Of a stretch of 64,000 nucleotides of DNA, positions 3,116-36,226 are shown one piece after another. The notes below the pieces were generated by a model. The model worked only from the letters and a program-made list of their open reading frames with translations, was not told the DNA's origin and ran no database searches. Source of the stretch: an uncultured Methanosarcinaceae archaeon (GTDB lineage: Archaea; Halobacteriota; Methanosarcinia; Methanosarcinales; Methanosarcinaceae); the NCBI GenBank assembly GCA_963847185.1, contig CAWJYV010000008.1, positions 992,001 to 1,056,000 on the forward strand. Direction: 5' to 3'. The stretch's first letter is position 1. Each line of letters begins with the position of its first letter. The position numbers and the translations under genes are program-made.

Positions 3116-3397
3116 TTTTTTGATTTAGTTTTCGTTCACTTTTATTGTTTACATAGACTAAGTCTTAGAGATGTAGTTTTGTTTTTGGTTCAGAGGCTTA
3201 AATATTCTGTGTTTTGTTTTCGTTATTATGCTTCTTTATTAATACTTGAAGTACTTCTAGTGCCTGAGGTGACGGGATTTTTAAGTTACTACTTCAAATG
3301 GCGTTAGGATAGACAGGAGCAAAACCTTTTTACATATGGAAAAAATTAGAACATAAACAGTTAATAATGAGTTCCTTTTTTATTGGTATGGTTTAAG

Positions 3398-5233
3398 ATG
3401 ACGTTGGCAATCGAATGGGCTGAAAAATACCGCCCCCAGAGCCTCAAAGATATTATTGGGAACAAGAAGGCAGTGCAGGATCTGAAGACCTGGGCTGAGG
3501 AATGGCTTTCAGGAATTCCTGAGAAAAGGGCAGTCATTCTCCATGGGTCTGCAGGCGTAGGGAAGACTTCAAGTGTTCACGCTCTTGCCCGGGATCTGGG
3601 CTGGGAAGTGATAGAGCTCAACGCAAGTGATCAGAGGACTGCAGGGGTTATTGAAAGGATCGCAGGATCTGCAGCTTCTATGAGTACTTTTTTCGGAGGA
3701 AAGCGCCTGATCATTCTGGATGAGGCTGACAACATCCACGGGAGTGCAGACAGAGGCGGAATGCGGGCGATTGCAGGACTTATAAAAACTACACTTCAGC
3801 CGATGGTTCTGATTGCAAATGACATCTATGGGCTAACTCCTACTATTCGGAATCTCTGCCTGGAAATCAAGTTCGGATCCATTCAGAGCCGTTCAATGAT
3901 TCCAGTTTTGAAAAAGGTATGCGAGAATGAAGGAGTCCTTTGCAGTCCGGATGCAATCCAGCAGATTGCAGAAAATGCAGGTGGAGACTTGCGAAGTGCA
4001 ATGAATGATCTTCAGGCTTCAGCCAGTGGAAAGGAAGTACTGGAGCTAGAAGATATTAGTACTTCAGGCAGGGATGTCAAAGAAAACATTTTCAAGGCAA
4101 TGCAAAGGATATTCAAGAGCACTGATTGTAAAAAAGCTCTTGGAGTAGCAATCGAACTTGATGAGAGTCCTGAGGATCTTGTGCACTGGATCGATGAAAA
4201 CCTTCCCATCCAGTATGCCAGCAAAGAAGGTGACCTGGGAGACATAAGGACAGGTTTTGAGTTTCTCTCTAAGGCTGACCTCTATCTTGGTCGCGTAAAG
4301 AAACGCCAGAACTATCGGATGTGGAGATATGCCAGCATGCTGATGGTCTGTGGAGCTGTGATTTCAAAGACGAAATCCTACCCCGGATTTATTAAATATC
4401 AGCAGCCTTCTCTCTGGCGGAGGCTTGGACAGACGCGTTCGAAGCGAGACCTGAGGGATAATGTTTCTTCTAAAATTGGTGAGCACAGCTTTGAATCTAT
4501 CCGTTATTCAAGAAATAATCTCCTGAGGCTTTACTCCTGCATGGTAAAGGATGAAAAGACTGCAATTGAAGTTACTGCATTTCTCGGACTTGAACTCGAG
4601 GAATTGATCTACCTTTCCGGAAGTACCAAGCCCAGTAAAAAACTACAGAAAATCTATGATGAAGCGCAGGAACTGCTTCGAGAAGGAAAAGACGATGAAG
4701 AAGAACAGGGTTTCTTCAAGATTCCGGTTTCATCTGAAGATCGCAAACAGGTAACTTTTTGTTCCATAATCCAACGTCCCGAAGAACCAGAGAAAAAAAA
4801 TTCAGATAGTTCTGAGAATTCTGATTTTCGGCTTTCTGAGGGCAAGCAGAGGACCTTCAACTTCAATCTTGATGTTTCTTCTGAGATGTCGGGAGAAAAA
4901 GAGATTTCCGAAAGTAATACACCTGATTCCGTTGTATCTAATCCTCTTTTATCTGATATGCTGGCGTCTGATAGTCCCAAATCTCTGGGAAATAAAGTCT
5001 CCTATCCTTCTGAGCCTCTTGAGAAACAAGCTTTTCTCGGCTCTGAAACCTTGGATGAAAAAGTCTCTTCTGAGCCTCTAAAACAGAAGATGCCTGCAAA
5101 TGATGAACCTGCGGACAATAAGTCTGATATTATTGAGGCCCCGGAACCCAAGTCCTCAGATTTTGAAGTCGAAGCCTCGGGAACTCCTAAAAAAGCCGAA
5201 TTGAAAACTCAAAAAACACTCTTCGATTTCTAA
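3398..5233 (+). CDS. rfcL: Replication factor C large subunit
   Basis: WAEKYRP, Walker [20 protein letters not shown]; C-terminal PIP box QKTLFDF after an acidic disordered tail. Confidence 0.95.
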
Positions 5234-5429: not shown

Positions 5430-5507
5430 ATGTGAGCGGATTGACGGGGTTAATAATAAAATAGTCTTAGTGTATATTGGGAATTGGGGACTGGGTCCCG
5501 CTCACAT
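5430..5507 (-). ncRNA. Candidate sRNA copy 1 (GUGAGCGG stem, C-rich loop)
   Basis: ATGTGAGCGG (5430-5439) pairs with CCGCTCACAT (5498-5507); minus-strand TTATAA box at 5528-5533. Confidence 0.55.
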
Positions 5508-5579
5508 GAACCACTTTGTAATTTTTCTTATAAGGATTTTTCCACTTTTTAGTGCTTATTCAATGACGGAGTCCTTACA

Positions 5580-5690
5580 GATAAGACAAATTCTTAACAA
5601 ATGAAGTAATTCAAACAAGTAAAATAAATTCTAAGTAAGCAGGATAAATTTCTAACAAATAAGATAAATTCTAAGTAAGTGGGATAATTC
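5580..5690. repeat. Degenerate ~20-bp tandem repeat (ATAAATTCTAAGTAAG-like)
   Basis: About five imperfect copies lying between hairpin units 1 and 2. Confidence 0.45.
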
Positions 5691-5724
5691 GCAGAAAAGT
5701 TGTGAAGACGAAAACAAGGAGTTT

Positions 5725-5817
5725 GTGAGCGGGTTAGGAGAGTTTTGGGGGAATATTGGGGGAATAGTTGGGGGGATATGGGTTTGGGGTTATACTATGG
5801 AAAAGAGACCCGCTCAC
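5725..5817 (-). ncRNA. Candidate sRNA copy 2
   Basis: GTGAGCGGGT (5725-5734) pairs with ACCCGCTCAC (5808-5817); minus-strand GAAAAAAAC-TATTTATA BRE/TATA at 5841-5857. Confidence 0.6.
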
Positions 5818-6004
5818 TCGACATGAGTACTTATTTATGGTATAAATAGTTTTTTCTTTTATTCGTTTTAATTTATAATTAAGGCTTTATTTGTACAAAT
5901 CAATTGTTTGACATAAAGGTTTCCTTAATTTTGGTTTAAAATCGATAGTTAATATGCAGGATTTACAGCACCGCAAAAAATTATTATTCTTAGAGAAAAT
6001 GGGA

Positions 6005-6077
6005 TGAGCGGGTTGGGGAGTATGAATTGGGGGTGTTGGGGGGTTGGGGTTATCTAACAAAAGAGAGACCCGCTCAC
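6005..6077 (-). ncRNA. Candidate sRNA copy 3
   Basis: TGAGCGGGT (6005-6013) pairs with ACCCGCTCA (6068-6076); minus-strand ATTTATAT box at 6101-6108. Confidence 0.6.
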
Positions 6078-6396
6078 AAGTATTACATCATGCTAGTCAG
6101 ATATAAATATATTTTGCTTGAATTTTTTTGAATAAACACTTTCGGAAGTCTCTATGTAAGAGGAAAACAAACCTTTTTTAAAACGAGGGTAATTTCGTTC
6201 CCTTTCTTATTCTCCTCTATGGCAGAGAGTTCTGATTATATTAGAGAGTCTCGATTATTTCGGGGAGTTTTGATTATATCTGCAAATTAGTCAGTTCTTT
6301 TTTGACAGTTTGTCGCTAACAAAAGACATATATATAACTAGTTACATTTTGGAGTTGCATTTGGAGCATTCCTGCAAATGTGCACAGCGGCAAAAT

Positions 6397-6470
6397 GGGC
6401 TCGTGGTCTAGTCGGTTATGACATCGCCTTTACACGGCGGGGATCCTGAGTTCGAATCTCAGCGGGCCCA
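6397..6470 (+). tRNA. tRNA-Val(TAC)
   Basis: GGGCTCG/CGGGCCC-A acceptor stem, TCGCC-TT-TAC-AC-GGCGG anticodon arm, GTTCGAATC T-loop. Confidence 0.97.
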
Positions 6471-6763
6471 CTCTCTTTATTATCCTTCTTTTCTAATTTT
6501 AAGTGCTTATTGAGCTTCTTTTCTAATGCTTCGACTCTTGCTTCAAGGTCAGATTTTACTTCTGGTTGTGCAACTTTAAGTTCACAGTTAATATTTTCTT
6601 CAAGGGAAATTACATACACAGGTTTACCATTATATTCTGTTTTGAAAATATGGGCAGTTTCTCCAGCAACACTCACTTCAGATTTCGGTAGCCTTACTAA
6701 AGGATATGTAATATGTGATTTTACATTATGTTTCATGACTTTAGACTTGCCTAATAGCTTCAT
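6416..6763 (-). pseudogene. Probable N-terminal fragment (intN) of an SSV1/pTN3-type tyrosine integrase overlapping the tRNA-Val 3' half
   Basis: ATG 6763 preceded by GAGGT; the ORF reads antisense through the tRNA (…GPAEIRTQDPRRVK…), the geometry of split SSV-type integrases; no catalytic domain present. Confidence 0.5.
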
Positions 6764-18612: not shown

Positions 18613-19836
18613 TTATTCCGTAGTAACTCCGTCAAATTCTGCTGGATTCGCTTCAGCTTCTGCTTTTGTGGCTCTCACTATGCAATCCTTATGGACAGGT
18701 GGTGAATAAACCGTATAGAGTTTAAGAGAATCAGTTTTCGAAGTACAGATGACGTTGTGCTCGGCTCCAGCCGGTATTATTACTGCAGATCCTTTATTTA
18801 TTTTATATTCATTTCCGTTAATTATACACTTTCCCTGCCCTTCTTCAAAACGTAAAAACTGGTCATTTTCCTTATGCATTTCCATTCCTATTTCTTCTCT
18901 AGGCTTGAGGCTCATAAGTACTAGCTGGTTGTGCTTTGCAGTGTAGAGTACCTTTCGGAAATTGTTATTTTCCAAAGTTGCTTTTTCTATATCAACACAA
19001 TATCCTTTCACTTTCTTTTCTGTTTTTTCTTTCTCTTCGTTCACTTCTTTCTCTTCGTTCACTTCTTTCTCTTCGTTCACTTCTTTCTTCTCCTCTTCTT
19101 CGTTCACTTCTTTCTCTTCGTTCACTTCTTTCTCTTCGTTCACTTCTTTCTCTTCGTTCACTTCTTTCTCTTCGTTCACTTCTTTCTCTTCGTTCACTTC
19201 TTTCTCTTCGTTCACTTCTTCCTTTTCTTTTGTCTTCTTTCCAGCTATATTGAATATCTCTTTAGCACCTACTGCCGTTGTTGTTACCGGCAGTAATTCC
19301 GTAGTCACTCCGTCAAACTCTGCTGGATTCGCCTCAGCTTCTGCTTTTGTGGCACGCACTATGCAATCCTTGTGAACAGGCGGTGAATAAACCGTATAGA
19401 GTTTAAGAGAATCAGTTTTCGAAGTACAGATGATGTTGTGCTGAGCACCGGCTGGTATTATCACCGCAGATCCTTTATATACTTCATATTCATTTCCATT
19501 AATTATGCACTTTCCCTGCCCTTCTTCAAAACGTAAAAACTGGTCATTTTCCTTATGTATTTCCATTCCTATTTCTTCCCCAGGCTTGAGGCTCATAAGT
19601 ACTAGCTGGCTGTGCTTTGCAGTATAGAGCACCTTTCGGAAATTGTCGTTTTCCAAAGTGGCTTTTTCGATGTCAATAGAATATCCTTTCACTTTCTTTT
19701 CTTCCTTAGTTACCTTCTCTCCAGCTTTATTAGGCGATTCTTTAGCACTTACTGCCGCTGCTGTCAATGACAATAAAAAACAAATTGCCAGCAAAATACC
19801 CAGCGTCTTTTTTACTCTGCCAAATTGTATTTCCAT
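18613..19836 (-). CDS. Secreted tandem cupin protein with acidic EVNEEK linker
   Basis: Signal peptide MEIQFGRVKKTLGILL…AVSA; two near-identical cupin domains (FRKVLYTAKH…EIGME.H.ENDQF…PPVH). Confidence 0.8.
   Translation of the reverse strand: MEIQFGRVKKTLGILLAICFLLSLTAAAVSAKESPNKAGEKVTKEEKKVKGYSIDIEKATLENDNFRKVLYTAKHSQLVLMSLKPGEEIGMEIHKENDQFLRFEEGQGKCIINGNEYEVYKGSAVIIPAGAQHNIICTSKTDSLKLYTVYSPPVHKDCIVRATKAEAEANPAEFDGVTTELLPVTTTAVGAKEIFNIAGKKTKEKEEVNEEKEVNEEKEVNEEKEVNEEKEVNEEKEVNEEKEVNEEEEKKEVNEEKEVNEEKEVNEEKEKTEKKVKGYCVDIEKATLENNNFRKVLYTAKHNQLVLMSLKPREEIGMEMHKENDQFLRFEEGQGKCIINGNEYKINKGSAVIIPAGAEHNVICTSKTDSLKLYTVYSPPVHKDCIVRATKAEAEANPAEFDGVTTE
19031..19220. repeat. 18-bp coding tandem repeat (EVNEEK), about 10-11 copies
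   Basis: TTCTCTTCGTTCACTTCT repeated. Confidence 0.95.
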
Positions 19837-20355
19837 TTGTCCACATCCCCTGACATATCTAAATAATTCATACATATATGATTTTTAGACGATTTGATTT
19901 TTAATTTAGGTTATTGTTTTTTGTATCTACTTTCCATCGACGGATCCATTGTGAAAGTATCATTTTTCAGCTAGTATCTTAATTCAGTTCTGAAGACTAT
20001 AGTATCAGTGAATTTTATATTCATTTTATGCGCCGATGAAAATGATTCGTAATTGTATCACTAGATTATTATTCATAGGTAAATATAATACAAATAGAAA
20101 TAATAATTAGGATTTAAATACGCTAATTATATTTAACAAGTCTATCCAAAGCAATTTTTATTCCAATAAAGGATCGAACTCATATAGCTAAGACGAAAAA
20201 TTGTGGCATTTAAATTTACCATGCTTTATTTTTATACCTTGAGTGCATAAGTTCTATGGAATTAGAACGATACCTTAAGGTCAAAATCTATCGAATTCCA
20301 TCTTTCATTTTGGAACTGGGTCATTGGAAAGCAACTGTGTTTTATGGGGGAAATA

Positions 20356-35232: not shown

Positions 35233-36226
35233 TCAAGCGCCGCCAGAGGCTCCACCAGAGCCCGCCACGAGCGCCACCGGAACCGCCAGAACCGCCACCG
35301 GATGCTCCACCAGAAGCTCCACCGGAACCACCAAAGCCGCCGCCGCCGGAAGCACCACCAGAAGCTCCACCAGAACCGCCGGAACCGCCACCGGATGCTC
35401 CACCAGAAGCTCCACCGGAACCACCAAAGCCGCCGCCGCCGGAAGCACCACCAGAAGCTCCACCAGAACCGCCGGAACCGCCACCGGAGGCTCCACCAGA
35501 AGCTCCACCGGAACCACCAAAGCCGCCGCCGCCGGAAGCACCACCAGAAGCTCCACCAGAACCGCCGGAACCGCCACCAGATGCTCCACCAGAGGCTCCA
35601 CCGGAACCGCCAAAACCGCCACCACCTGAAGCACCACCAGAGGCTCCACCGGAACCACCAAAGCCGCCGCCACCAGATGCTCCACCAGAGGCTCCACCGG
35701 AACCACCAAAGCCGCCGCCGCCAGAGGCTCCGCCAGAAGCTCCACCGGAACCACCAAAGCGGCCACCAAAGCGGCCACCAAAGCGGCCACCGGGACCGCC
35801 ACCACCAGAAGCGCCACCAGAAGCTCCACCGGAACCGCCGAAGAAGCCGCCACCGCCAGAAGCGCCACCAGAAGCTCCACCGGAACCGCCGAAGAAGCCG
35901 CCACCGCCAGAAGCGCCACCAGAAGCTCCACCGGAACCACCAGGACCGCCACCGCCAGAAGCGCCACCAGAAGCTCCACCGGAACCACCAGGACCGCCAC
36001 CGCCAGAAGCGCCACCAGAAGCTCCACCGGAACCGCCAGGACCGCCACCGCCAGAAGCGCCACCAGAAGCTCCACCGGAACCGCCAGGACCGCCACCACC
36101 AGAAGCACCACCAGAGGCTCCACCGGATTGAGCACATACTGCCTCAGCTGCCACTGATATTACAAAAAAGGCTACTACGCAAAAGCACAGCATCTTTTTC
36201 ATTCTATCAAGCGTTTGTCTTCCCAT
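35233..36226 (-). CDS. Secreted Gly-rich protein 2, (GGASGGASGGGG[F/P]GGS)n, with a +1 frameshift about 9 codons before the natural stop
   Basis: Signal MGRQTLDRMKKML…AVCA; removing one G at 35261-35263 gives …GGASGGA* at 35233, the same ending and 3' flank as paralog 1. Confidence 0.75.

Follow-up and report, generated by a model that had tools for sequence, protein, structure and literature searches.

The window, a 64,000-nucleotide stretch of the genome of an uncultured Methanosarcinaceae archaeon, contains three tandem, separately promoted units that are, with near certainty, genes of a non-coding small RNA (sRNA) family. The trio consists of lineage-specific duplicates of an ancient class-wide RNA family, with unit 1 as its diverged third copy. 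The archetype of this family is an unlinked, near-invariant copy in the same genome (C8:754723-754800), of the type known from Methanosarcina mazei as sRNA047. The transcripts are already known; the definition of the family, its breadth and its 13-nt core motif, ACCCCCACUCCCC, appear to be new. The best explanation of the array as a whole couples these sRNA genes with a proposed action against ribosome-binding sites (RBSs), and to this complete account we give a little less than even weight.

An array of clamped stem-loops

All three units lie on the minus strand (Table 1) and are closed by a common clamp of 9-10 bp (GUGAGCGGG/CCCGCUCAC). An earlier, sequence-only reading of this DNA had proposed such a shared closing stem, and both pattern searches and folding recover it on that strand. 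The same reading placed the units about 280 bp apart, which is roughly right, the start-to-start distances being 312 and 260 nt. It also gave every unit a loop built from C-runs. This is true of units 2 and 3, each with four runs of at least four Cs and only one or two Gs, but unit 1 holds just two C4 runs and is poorer in C. The 54-73 nt loops are G-poor throughout the array, and those of units 2 and 3 are C-rich.

A search with GTGAGCGG-N30-60-CCGCTCA recovers units 1 and 3, and none of 100 shuffles gave any match; unit 2 appeared once the gap in the pattern was widened. Folding of the minus-strand RNA gives units 2 and 3 a closing helix alone, around an open loop, and unit 1 a closing helix plus small extra hairpins (folding Z-scores -3.4, -5.2 and -3.8 for the units). 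The plus strand carries at least four G-runs per unit.

Table 1. Features of the three-unit array, in window coordinates
Feature	Position	Strand	Description
Unit 3 promoter	6100..6116	-	TATA TTTATATC 6100-6107; A-rich BRE-like 6108-6116; 22 nt to first stem G
Unit 3 stem-loop	6004..6077	-	Orthologue of M. mazei sRNA021; covariance model (CM) score 85.2 bits
Unit 3 arms	5′ 6068-6077; 3′ 6004-6013	-	5′ GUGAGCGGGU; 3′ ACCCGCUCAU; closing pair G·U
Unit 3 loop	6014-6067	-	54 nt; U4 run and four C-runs
Unit 3 candidate termination sites	5975..5999	-	T4 5996-5999; T6 5975-5980
Unit 2 promoter	5841..5857	-	TATA-like TATTTATA 5841-5848; A-rich 5849-5857; 23 nt to first stem G
Unit 2 stem-loop	5725..5817	-	Orthologue of M. 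mazei sRNA022; CM score 73.7 bits
Unit 2 arms	5808-5817 and 5725-5734	-	
Unit 2 loop	5735-5807	-	73 nt; U4 run, then ~11-nt modules with one C-run each (11-nt repeat spacing)
Unit 2 candidate termination sites	5695..5714	-	T4 runs 5711-5714 and 5695-5698
Unit 1 weak promoter-like site	5529..5545	-	TCCTTATA 5529-5536, A-rich upstream; 23 nt to first stem G
Unit 1 stem-loop	5432..5505	-	Diverged paralogue; CM E-value 2.8e-8
Unit 1 arms	5497-5505 and 5432-5440	-	GUGAGCGGG and UCCGCUCAC; one G·U pair
Unit 1 loop		-	56 nt; two C4 runs, U-rich stretch late

Every unit has a TATA-like site of its own with A-rich sequence upstream, 22-23 nt before the first G of the stem. This largely bears out the 23-25 nt proposed earlier, except that the TATA of unit 1 is weak. 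Compared with TTTATATA, the three 8-mers match at 5/8 (unit 1), 6/8 (unit 2) and 7/8 (unit 3) positions. Across the family, 95 of 99 members have a TATA with a match of at least 6/8 ahead of the clamp, on the C-rich strand, and the gap from TATA to stem measures 20-26 nt in 89 of the 99. In one relative (L035), the counterpart of unit 1 has a better TATA at the same place. Archaeal transcription terminates at T-runs, and candidate sites of this kind follow units 3 and 2. The 5′ ends predicted for the minus-strand transcripts agree with the published ends of the M. mazei orthologues, which fall at the first stem G for sRNA021 and 2 nt before it for sRNA022; the 3′ end published for sRNA021 lies ~10 nt past the 3′ arm (supplement of PMC11456600).

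Published counterparts in Methanosarcina mazei

The M. mazei catalogue that contains sRNA021, sRNA022 and sRNA047 is said to originate with Jäger et al. 2009. By sequence, strand and gene order, unit 3 is the orthologue of sRNA021 and unit 2 that of sRNA022 in strain Gö1, and the unlinked family copy in the genome studied here matches sRNA047. The novelty implied by the earlier reading is therefore lost for two of the three units and for the family archetype. By-eye comparison with the supplement of PMC11456600 shows one difference between unit 3 and sRNA021 over the 74-nt stem-loop. Unit 2 and sRNA022 are ~90% alike by eye, with the same arms and motif order and with C-runs of different length. 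The supplement gives all three RNAs on the C-rich strand, with sRNA021 at 336282 and sRNA022 at 336727. In M. mazei these two are followed by a unit-1-like hairpin within 337026-337259, which reproduces the array order. Strand, 5′ ends and order are thus shared between two different genomes, and unit 1 is the one member not listed in M. mazei: the PMC11456600 entries, as far as they are covered here, contain no sRNA at that place, and no transcript is on record. The place is annotated in M. mazei as a hypothetical gene on the opposite strand.

The three catalogued RNAs are abundant and sparsely occupied by ribosomes. Their RNA rpkm values are 29,949-142,299 (sRNA021), 19,663-45,761 (sRNA022) and 481,730-698,607 (sRNA047), with translation efficiencies (TE) of 0.07-0.33 (PMC11456600); on one page of that supplement, the TE of coding genes is mostly 1-18. 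The main text of PMC11456600 does not mention sRNA021, sRNA022 or sRNA047. A literature search for C-rich or abundant conserved sRNAs of Methanosarcina or Methanosarcinales, and for the sRNA names, returned no paper that discusses these RNAs or treats them as one family; several key M. mazei sRNA papers (Jäger 2009, Prasse 2017, Buddeweg 2018 and the Prasse & Schmitz review) lie outside the texts searched. A search with the stem 9-mers returned unrelated papers only. Four metagenome or metatranscriptome runs of relatives held 5-16% of the words, and their contigs (2-7x, 88-99% alike) extend over parts of the units and spacers; these are uninformative on strand, ends and level.

A class-wide family

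Sequence conservation points to selection on the units. Identity to 14 related genomes is 88-97% for unit 3 and 83-94% for unit 2, and unit 1 has orthologues in at least six genomes of the same genus. The sequence between units had been called unconserved, and in the same 14 genomes the spacer between units 2 and 3 is indeed only 13-63% identical and 183-1382 nt long. A segment of the neighbouring RFC protein is 38-60% identical within the genus. In eight of eight same-genus loci, the trio sits between the gene for the RFC large subunit and tRNA-Val. Over a wider range, 14 loci from six genera or families have no neighbouring gene in common.

The family is much broader than the array. Its covariance model, R1, matches 149 of 151 genomes in a sample of the order and 145 of 151 in a sample of the class. 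Beyond the class it picks up a single additional family, and 113 genomes from 22 other families of the phylum gave no hit. The family is limited neither to the array nor to accessory genes. Within the genome studied here (4.04 Mb) there are three exact-pattern copies and six clear copies by model R1. A permissive first scan of the genome for clamped, G-poor windows produced 501 hits, mostly meaningless, and gave way to a stricter one. The earlier reading of the units as separately promoted minus-strand genes is supported, as is that of a multicopy family in which the clamp stays fixed and the C-rich loop varies. Rfam, which had been named as a place where the family might already be known, gave no match at E values up to 10 for the window region, up to 1 for 13 relatives and up to 5 for the sRNA047-type copy.

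Compensatory changes across species, the check suggested for the stem, are present: six of the ten clamp pairs change on both sides, as in the variant stems GCGAGCGGG/CCCGCUCGC, ACGAGCGGG/CCCGCUCGU and GUGGGCAGG/CCUGCCCAC. The clamp is paired in 96.8% of 1010 cells, a figure favoured by fitting the alignment to model R1, and a control with slid partners gives 28-45%. None of 500 shuffles reached the covariation score. Among 101 distinct sequences, wobble cells comprise 37 G·U or U·G and 5 A·C or C·A. Variation is unevenly spread, as two of the ten pairs never vary and four more vary in just 1-3 of the 101 sequences. The absence of a common open reading frame (ORF) was also confirmed, the frame from the GUG of the stem being 3-73 codons long in 35 distinct sequences and shifting between species. 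Compensatory stem changes, the preponderance of G·U over A·C, a conserved promoter and the lack of a conserved reading frame together are evidence for a non-coding RNA on the C-rich strand.

The family loop is 31-84 nt long, with a base content of 2.5% G and 43% C; being almost without G, it cannot fold on itself. A run of at least four Us is present in 100 of 101 members. Such a single-stranded U-tract is a feature of sRNAs bound by Sm-like (Lsm) proteins, a putative partner of these RNAs. The U-tract comes first and is followed by the C-runs, and most members close the loop, next to the 3′ arm, with the 13-nt core ACCCCCACUCCCC or a remnant of it. The core 10-mer CCCCACUCCC occurs in 44 of the 101 distinct members and the remnant ACUC(C/U)CC in 74; the core is letter-identical across distant families of the class. 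In being poor in G, rich in C and supplied with a U-run, the loops of units 2 and 3 agree with the family in full, and they carry the remnants ACUCUCC and ACUCCCC, respectively; unit 1 agrees in part, having fewer C-runs and a late U-run. The module number of unit 2 varies among species, so that its stem-loops measure 86-99 nt.

Possible modes of action

Transcription starts at the clamp or 2 nt before it, and the GC-rich clamp of 9-10 bp joins the 5′ and 3′ ends of the RNA. In the mechanism proposed here, the clamp would shield both ends from exonucleases. The U-tract would recruit an Sm-like protein, and the permanently exposed C-runs would pair in trans with G-runs of other RNAs. The best candidate targets would be the G-run class of RBSs (GGGGG, GGGGA and AGUGGGG), in which case a high RNA copy number would damp or buffer the translation of mRNAs with such sites. 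We infer this mechanism of clamp, U-tract and C-runs only tentatively, as possible rather than probable; an anti-Shine-Dalgarno (SD) role of the C-rich loops is plausible. In its favour, the masking of RBSs is an established action of M. mazei sRNAs (sRNA154 and sRNA41; PMC5867862). Against the account as a whole stands the manual curation in PMC11456600, in which each of the three M. mazei RNAs has small ORFs marked as translated.

Taken overall, the target tests were neutral to weakly positive. The G-run RBSs listed in the earlier reading are where it placed them, for example GGGGG 6 nt before the ATG at 20346 and UGGGGAGUG 5 nt before the ATG at 36226 on the minus strand. Genome-wide, G-run 5-mers are 4-8 fold enriched at -20 to -3 of crude gene starts (GGGGG 7.6x, 80 genes; GGGGA 4.3x, 118 genes). 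Of the sites complementary to core 8-mers, 11.7% precede a start codon, compared with a shuffle median of 8.4% and with 13.9% for the 16S anti-SD; two of 30 composition-matched shuffles were as high. For core-complement 7-mers the start association is 0.07-0.12, no higher than for unrelated purine-rich 7-mers, and canonical SD 7-mers reach 0.15-0.19. The four loops pair with 900 start regions at mean duplex energies of -9.9 to -10.5 kcal/mol and with coding windows at -9.3 to -9.7 kcal/mol, hardly a difference, and mononucleotide-shuffled loops bind as well as or better than the real ones. By inspection against the 16S 3′ end, the core forms only 4 bp, and no full pairing, with the canonical GGAGG. 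Outside the family loci, the only perfect 10-nt complement of the core in this genome is one coding-region site (C6:67192).

One gene family, DUF1699, offers a lead for a target, not a link. Of its 14 paralogues in this genome, eight carry an RBS of the form (A)GUGGGG(G) or AUGGGGG, complementary to CCCCCACU. Nine of nine orthologues from Methanosarcina and its sister genus keep this complementarity; in five other genera it is lost. DUF1699 is also absent (0/15) from the outside family that has the RNA and present (4/4) in one without it.

A near-fixed 13-nt motif and clamp over a whole class fit a fixed partner, protein or rRNA, at least as well as many mRNAs. The family could be an unrecognised class-wide housekeeping RNA, among the most abundant transcripts in the cell, that acts as a global titrator of a C-specific protein, of the ribosome or of G-run leaders and not as an ordinary sRNA tied to particular conditions, with the trio as extra, faster-evolving copies that widen binding capacity; we consider this broad reading somewhat unlikely.

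Also unlikely, though the likeliest of the specific alternatives, is a protein-binding scaffold or sponge. Here the clamp and the ACCCCCACUCCCC core would be recognition sites for one or more proteins, such as a C-specific single-strand RNA binder together with an Sm-like protein on the U-tract. The abundant RNA would titrate or carry its protein, like bacterial CsrB or 6S RNA, and the extra C-run modules of units 2 and 3 would be added sites. The spread of the core 10-mer and its remnant, and a core that distant families share letter for letter, argue for such a role, as does a clamp whose sequence is closer to fixed than a mere helix would need. Abundance in the range of housekeeping RNAs, a variable number of modules and the failure of any convincing RNA target to emerge point the same way. 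On the other hand, no partner protein is known or predicted, and the 14 loci show no conserved neighbouring gene. DUF1699, the sole co-distributed family tested, differs in its distribution outside the class. A strict protein site would also be expected to resist drift of the kind that has carried the loops of units 1-3 away from the core.

An rRNA-directed RNA is a quite improbable alternative. The C-rich core would pair with a G-run of 16S rRNA or mimic the anti-SD end, and would thereby affect the ribosome, or its assembly, and not single mRNAs. The constancy of the motif would follow from a partner that is itself invariant. Of the 110 sites in the genome that offer a 9-nt complement to the core region, the only ones in structural RNAs are in the three 16S genes, at GGGGGGUUA, which lies ~50 nt from the 3′ end. 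Within the order, one family (relatives L006-L010) has the clamp followed by a tail, CCCACCUCC and then Us, that is near the 16S end CACCUCCU. However, the pairing spans just 7-9 bp, and the 16S match may be luck because a 9-mer hit in a 1.5-kb RNA has, by rough estimate, a ~2% chance per RNA. The 16S stretch is, moreover, presumably paired in the mature subunit. Abundant ribonucleoprotein RNAs often contaminate Ribo-seq, and this, together with the low TE, tempers the finding that the M. mazei RNAs are plentiful there (RIBO rpkm up to 227,135 for sRNA047; supplement of PMC11456600).

Still less probable is that the units are leaderless mRNAs for small proline-rich proteins, or dual-function RNAs, with the stem GUG read as the start codon, in the manner of sORF_036, sORF_037 and sORF_070 of M. 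mazei. DeepRibo predictions on sRNA021, sRNA022 and sRNA047 did receive a 'yes' in the manual Ribo-seq curation (PMC11456600), and units 2 and 3 and their orthologues open with the same six codons (V S G S L F). These codons, however, simply spell out the clamp and the U-run. The frame behind them has the erratic length described above: single-base changes in C-run length shift it between close species, and it stops at codon 8 in unit 3 of the window and at codons 8 and 10 in two other species. TE is 10-100 times below that of typical coding genes, and the rows for these RNAs in PMC11456600 contain no proteomics entry. A DNA-level element without RNA function, whether a MITE-like inverted repeat or a G-quadruplex/i-motif tract, would account for the inverted terminal arms and the plus-strand G-runs, but we assign it a negligible chance given six clear copies only, the eight syntenic same-genus loci (which, with the low copy number, also answer the earlier concern about a MITE), a conserved promoter on one side only, the wobble bias and the existence of abundant transcripts.

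Relation to known small RNAs

To our knowledge, functional sRNAs have been described in a handful of archaea, and nearly all of those studied are narrow in range. The present family was recovered from almost all genomes sampled in a class whose methanogens and methane oxidisers are important to the methane cycle, and it combines a simple design with a conserved 13-nt motif. Its archetype reaches RNA rpkm values near 500,000-700,000, which would be about a tenth of the counted reads for a 168-nt RNA if rpkm is taken per million counted reads (our arithmetic). It appears that no one has studied the family. Genetics exist for M. mazei, so a deletion or pull-down there could uncover a new level at which translation or RNA is controlled. 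RNA databases could also gain a family they lack from a covariance model of the R1 kind, which would end the annotation of these loci as small ORFs or hypothetical genes.

Among archaeal sRNAs, sRNA41 and sRNA154 of M. mazei come from the same group of organisms; in the portion of PMC5867862 covered, they are intergenic, trans-acting RNAs that mask RBSs by pairing through their loops. By inspection of the supplement, their sequences have neither the clamp nor the core, and in the genome studied here model R1 lists clamp-type loci only. In addition, sRNA154 is nitrogen-responsive, whereas sRNA047 is not (RNA log2 change 0.18, adjusted p 0.79, not significant; PMC11456600). The sscA RNA of Thermococcales and Methanococcales was considered as an analogue and set aside: as far as the source describes it, it is a 5′-UTR element with two stems and no evident likeness, and there is no Rfam match.

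C-rich seeds of bacterial sRNAs are thought or known to pair with the G-rich SD regions of several mRNAs. RsaE/RoxS, other staphylococcal Rsa RNAs and actinobacterial 6C (abstracts of PMC3961350 and PMC6486639) share with the present family unpaired C-runs, often with several C-motifs per RNA. The family differs from RsaE/RoxS and 6C in being archaeal and in matching no Rfam model in sequence or structure. Its C-runs also lie in one large loop clamped end to end, rather than in the apical loops of local hairpins, and the same loop holds the U-tract.

Strand and structure of the array

The RNA units between the replication factor C (RFC) large subunit gene and tRNA-Val belong to a gene family rather than being a local oddity. 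As the sequence-only reading had proposed, three minus-strand units with a common closing stem lie at 5430-6110. All three start with GUGAGCGGG and finish in (C/U)CCGCUCA(C/U), a stem pattern absent from 100 shuffles of the window, and their starts are 312 and 260 nt apart. Folded as RNA, units 2 and 3 form the closing helix alone with an open loop inside (Z-scores -5.2 and -3.8); unit 1 scores -3.4. In units 2 and 3 each loop has four C-runs and 1-2 G; the unit 2 loop is built of ~11-nt modules (repeat family D1), and unit 1 is poorer in C. Every unit has a TATA-like 8-mer, preceded by an A-rich stretch and ending 22-23 nt upstream of the first stem G, a weak one in unit 1 and good ones in units 2 and 3. 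Between units 1 and 2 the spacer contains a ~39-nt repeat in three tandem copies, 74-88% alike (families D2, D3, D6 and D7) and, so far as spacer identities tell, not conserved in relatives.

Promoter, wobble, covariation and published transcripts concur on the C-rich strand as the one transcribed. The TATA element agrees with the consensus at 6 or more of 8 positions in 95 of 99 family members, with a TATA-to-stem gap of 20-26 nt in 89/99; the direction of transcription follows from the A-rich upstream side of the TATA element. Among 101 distinct sequences there are 37 G·U or U·G wobble cells versus 5 A·C or C·A. These counts would be reversed on the other strand, which favours the C-rich strand; related sequences are not independent, so the test is support, not proof. 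The 9-10 bp end-to-end stem (the clamp) is paired in 96.8% of 1010 cells versus 28-45% with slid partners, and six of its ten pairs show two-sided changes (28 cells). None of 500 shuffles reached its covariation score, in an alignment whose fitting to the family covariance model (R1) helps pairing; stem variants such as GUGGGCAGG/CCUGCCCAC are evident in the raw sequences. Stem covariation across species is thus borne out.

Transcripts of two of the three units are already known from Methanosarcina mazei Gö1, as is that of the archetype, an unlinked copy with a doubled motif. In the part of the published data available (PMC11456600), sRNA021 is the orthologue of unit 3, sRNA022 of unit 2 and sRNA047 of the archetype. 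Their RNA levels are 29,949-142,299, 19,663-45,761 and 481,730-698,607 rpkm, with translation efficiencies (TE) of 0.07-0.17, 0.10-0.16 and 0.23-0.33; among the coding genes that open the source data, TE is mostly 1-18. The unit-1-like hairpin of M. mazei sits within a gene annotated as hypothetical on the other strand (RNA base mean 24) and is without an sRNA entry in the available supplement table.

The same data include sRNA023, ~10 kb from sRNA021/022, whose clamp GUGAACGGG/CCCGUUCAC is one compensatory pair away from that of the units and whose loop is G-poor and C/A-rich; by this likeness it may be a further relative. Two small ORFs marked 'yes', sORF_035 (antisense to sRNA021) and sORF_071 (antisense to sRNA047), are predicted on the G-rich strand and hint at antisense reads or spill-over of very abundant sense RNA (PMC11456600).

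Locations of the array, related RNAs and candidate target loci (window positions unless a contig, C1-C9, of the window's own genome or M. mazei is named)
Feature	Location	Strand	Basis or remark
Unit 1	5432-5505	-	window sequence
Unit 2	5725-5817	-	window sequence
Unit 3	6004-6077	-	window sequence
RFC large subunit gene, array flank	3383-5233	+	ORF reading
tRNA-Val, array flank	6397-6471	+	window sequence
39-nt spacer repeat	5574-5690		
Archetype, motif ACCCCCCACUCCCC twice	C8:754723-754800		relaxed scan, covariance model
Unlinked short form, compensatory stem ACGAGCGGG/CCCGCUCGU	C7:22631-22691		relaxed scan, covariance model
Unlinked member	C5:64425-64544		relaxed scan, covariance model
Second-set locus	C1:152800	+	outside window
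Second-set locus	C6:68810	+	outside window
Second-set locus	C9:23375	-	outside window
Second-set locus	C9:4438	-	outside window
Second-set locus	C9:2449	-	outside window
sRNA021, M. mazei	336282-336365	+	C-rich strand; starts at first stem G (PMC11456600)
sRNA022, M. mazei	336727-336912	+	C-rich strand; starts 2 nt ahead of stem (PMC11456600)
sRNA047, M. mazei	846462-846629	-	C-rich strand (PMC11456600)
sRNA023, M. mazei	NC_003901.1:347388-347497	+	PMC11456600
sORF_035, M. mazei	336224-336355	-	PMC11456600
sORF_071, M. mazei	846553-846591	+	PMC11456600
DUF1699 gene	C7:928244-928648	-	example
DUF1699 gene	C8:983456-983851	+	example
DUF1699 gene	C8:969519-969917	-	example
16S rRNA gene with GGGGGGUUA	C7:733032		
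16S rRNA gene with GGGGGGUUA	C8:1103290		
16S rRNA gene with GGGGGGUUA	C7	-	further copy

Coding potential and constraint

Leaderless small ORFs from the stem GUG (sORF_036, sORF_037 and sORF_070) were predicted in M. mazei, with manual curation 'yes' in the available data (PMC11456600). Among 35 distinct sequences this frame runs from 3 to 73 codons. Single-base C-run changes shift it, it ends at codon 8 in unit 3 of the window, and its common first codons are merely clamp and U-run. Such a variable, shifting and early-stopped frame, taken with the low TE, makes a conserved protein product unlikely. The earlier view of a separately promoted, multicopy, non-coding minus-strand sRNA family with no shared ORF stands on promoter, covariation, wobble, M. 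mazei transcripts and this frame.

In comparisons with 14 genomes of the genus and its sister genus, identity is 88-97% for unit 3 and 83-94% for unit 2. In the same genomes the stretch separating these two units is 13-63% identical and 183-1382 nt long, and the adjoining RFC segment has 38-60% protein identity. Because the units are far more alike than spacer and RFC, the loops are under strong constraint in sequence, beyond composition.

Distribution of the family

Exact-pattern copies in the window's own genome (4.04 Mb, 10 contigs) are limited to units 1-3, and a relaxed scan with the covariance model adds three unlinked members. Of 61 related genomes, 48 carry the exact pattern (34/36 within the genus). 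The trio, or units 2 and 3 at least, lies between RFC and tRNA-Val in 8/8 loci with enough flank from other same-genus genomes.

The covariance search suggested by the sequence-only reading returned matches in nearly all genomes sampled from the order and the class that hold Methanosarcina. Trained on 33 sequences, with a clamp of 10 bp, and applied at E <= 0.001 per genome, R1 matched 149 of 151 genomes in the order sample (6/6 families, 23/23 genera, 1-13 copies per genome) and 145 of 151 in the class sample, where it extended to one additional family (70/74) and another (1/3). The phylum sample yielded 35 of 151: class members, an outside family (14/15) and another family (2/4), whose two matches appear on inspection to be one real and one false. 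In 22 other families of the phylum, 0/113 genomes matched. We inspected 20 distant class matches and, from the phylum sample, seven convincing ones, of which five lie outside the class and two within it. All share one plan: upstream TATA, clamp, short spacer, U-run and a C-rich, G-free stretch to the 3′ arm. Ahead of this arm the motif is, within the class, almost always ACCCCCACUCCCC, of which ACUCCCC in unit 3 and ACUCUCC in unit 2 are relics.

Rfam 15 holds no matching model, so the check for an already characterised family came back empty, and the M. mazei sRNA41 and sRNA154 have no sequence relationship to the family. So far as found, the literature does not describe the family, its breadth or its function; a remark in the original catalogue paper or in the sRNA41 and sRNA154 papers is possible, and sRNA021, sRNA022 and sRNA047 go unnamed in the main text of PMC11456600. 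The trio adds new, lineage-specific members to an RNA family that is catalogued and of the C-rich-seed kind. Newly added here are the family definition, its class-wide distribution, the conserved core (a 13-nt C-rich loop motif) and the evidence against coding.

Five further loci in the same genome have the same design and a different stem, (U)GGGCAUCUG.../...CAGAUGCCC(A), each with a TATA ~25 nt upstream, clamp, U-run and C-runs. A single 57-kb contig holds three of them, and the available M. mazei sRNA table contains none of the stem words (PMC11456600).

Possible function and targets

Loop bases are 2.5% G and 43% C. A U-run of at least 4, in most cases 3-10 nt into the loop, is present in 100 of 101 members, and the RNAs of the family are very abundant in the available M. 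mazei data. The clamp would shield the 5′ and 3′ ends, the lack of G would keep the C-runs single-stranded, the U-run is probably an Sm-like protein site, and the C-runs could pair with G-runs elsewhere. Masking of G-rich ribosome-binding sites ranks first among the functional readings, but only tentatively, because the fixed clamp and core would be explained no less well by a protein or rRNA partner than by mRNA targets.

This genome does have a class of G-run ribosome-binding sites: at -20..-3 of crudely called starts, the enrichment is 7.6 fold for GGGGG and 8.6 fold for GGAGG, and the 16S rRNA 3′ end reads ...GGAUCACCUCCU. Direct tests of pairing gave weak results. Of 460 sites complementary to core 8-mers, 11.7% lie upstream of a start codon, versus a shuffle median of 8.4% (n=30), with 2/30 shuffles matching or exceeding the real value and the true anti-SD at 13.9%. 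Single 7-mers complementary to the core are nothing special. Predicted duplex energies do not set start regions apart from coding regions, and by the same measure shuffled loops bind as strongly as real ones, or more so.

Sequence complementarity makes DUF1699 (PF08004) a lead as a target family. It has 15 copies in this genome and up to 21 in a relative, and in 8/14 of the paralogues the ribosome-binding site, (A)GUGGGG(G) or AUGGGGG, is complementary to the core. Such sites are limited to Methanosarcina and its sister genus, and the range of DUF1699 outside the class is unlike that of the RNA family.

A role as protein scaffold or sponge, which the fixed clamp and core would also fit, is the second and somewhat less probable reading. 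A ribosome-directed role is improbable. A further lead is GGGGGGUUA, which lies ~50 nt from the 16S 3′ end and is complementary over 9 nt to the UAACCCCCC part of the core region; the three 16S genes are the sole structural-RNA matches among 110 9-mer sites, and the complement may be chance. In one family of the order (L006-L010), the clamp is followed by a tail, CCCACCUC(U/C) then U's, that resembles the 16S 3′ end CACCUCCU.

Within the window, the seemingly paralogous gene starts at 19836, 35096 and 36226 (-) each have a GGGG-type site. At 36226 (-), UGGGGAGUG lies 5 nt upstream of the ATG that opens a 354-codon ORF; the encoded product begins with a signal-like segment and Gly/Ser repeats.
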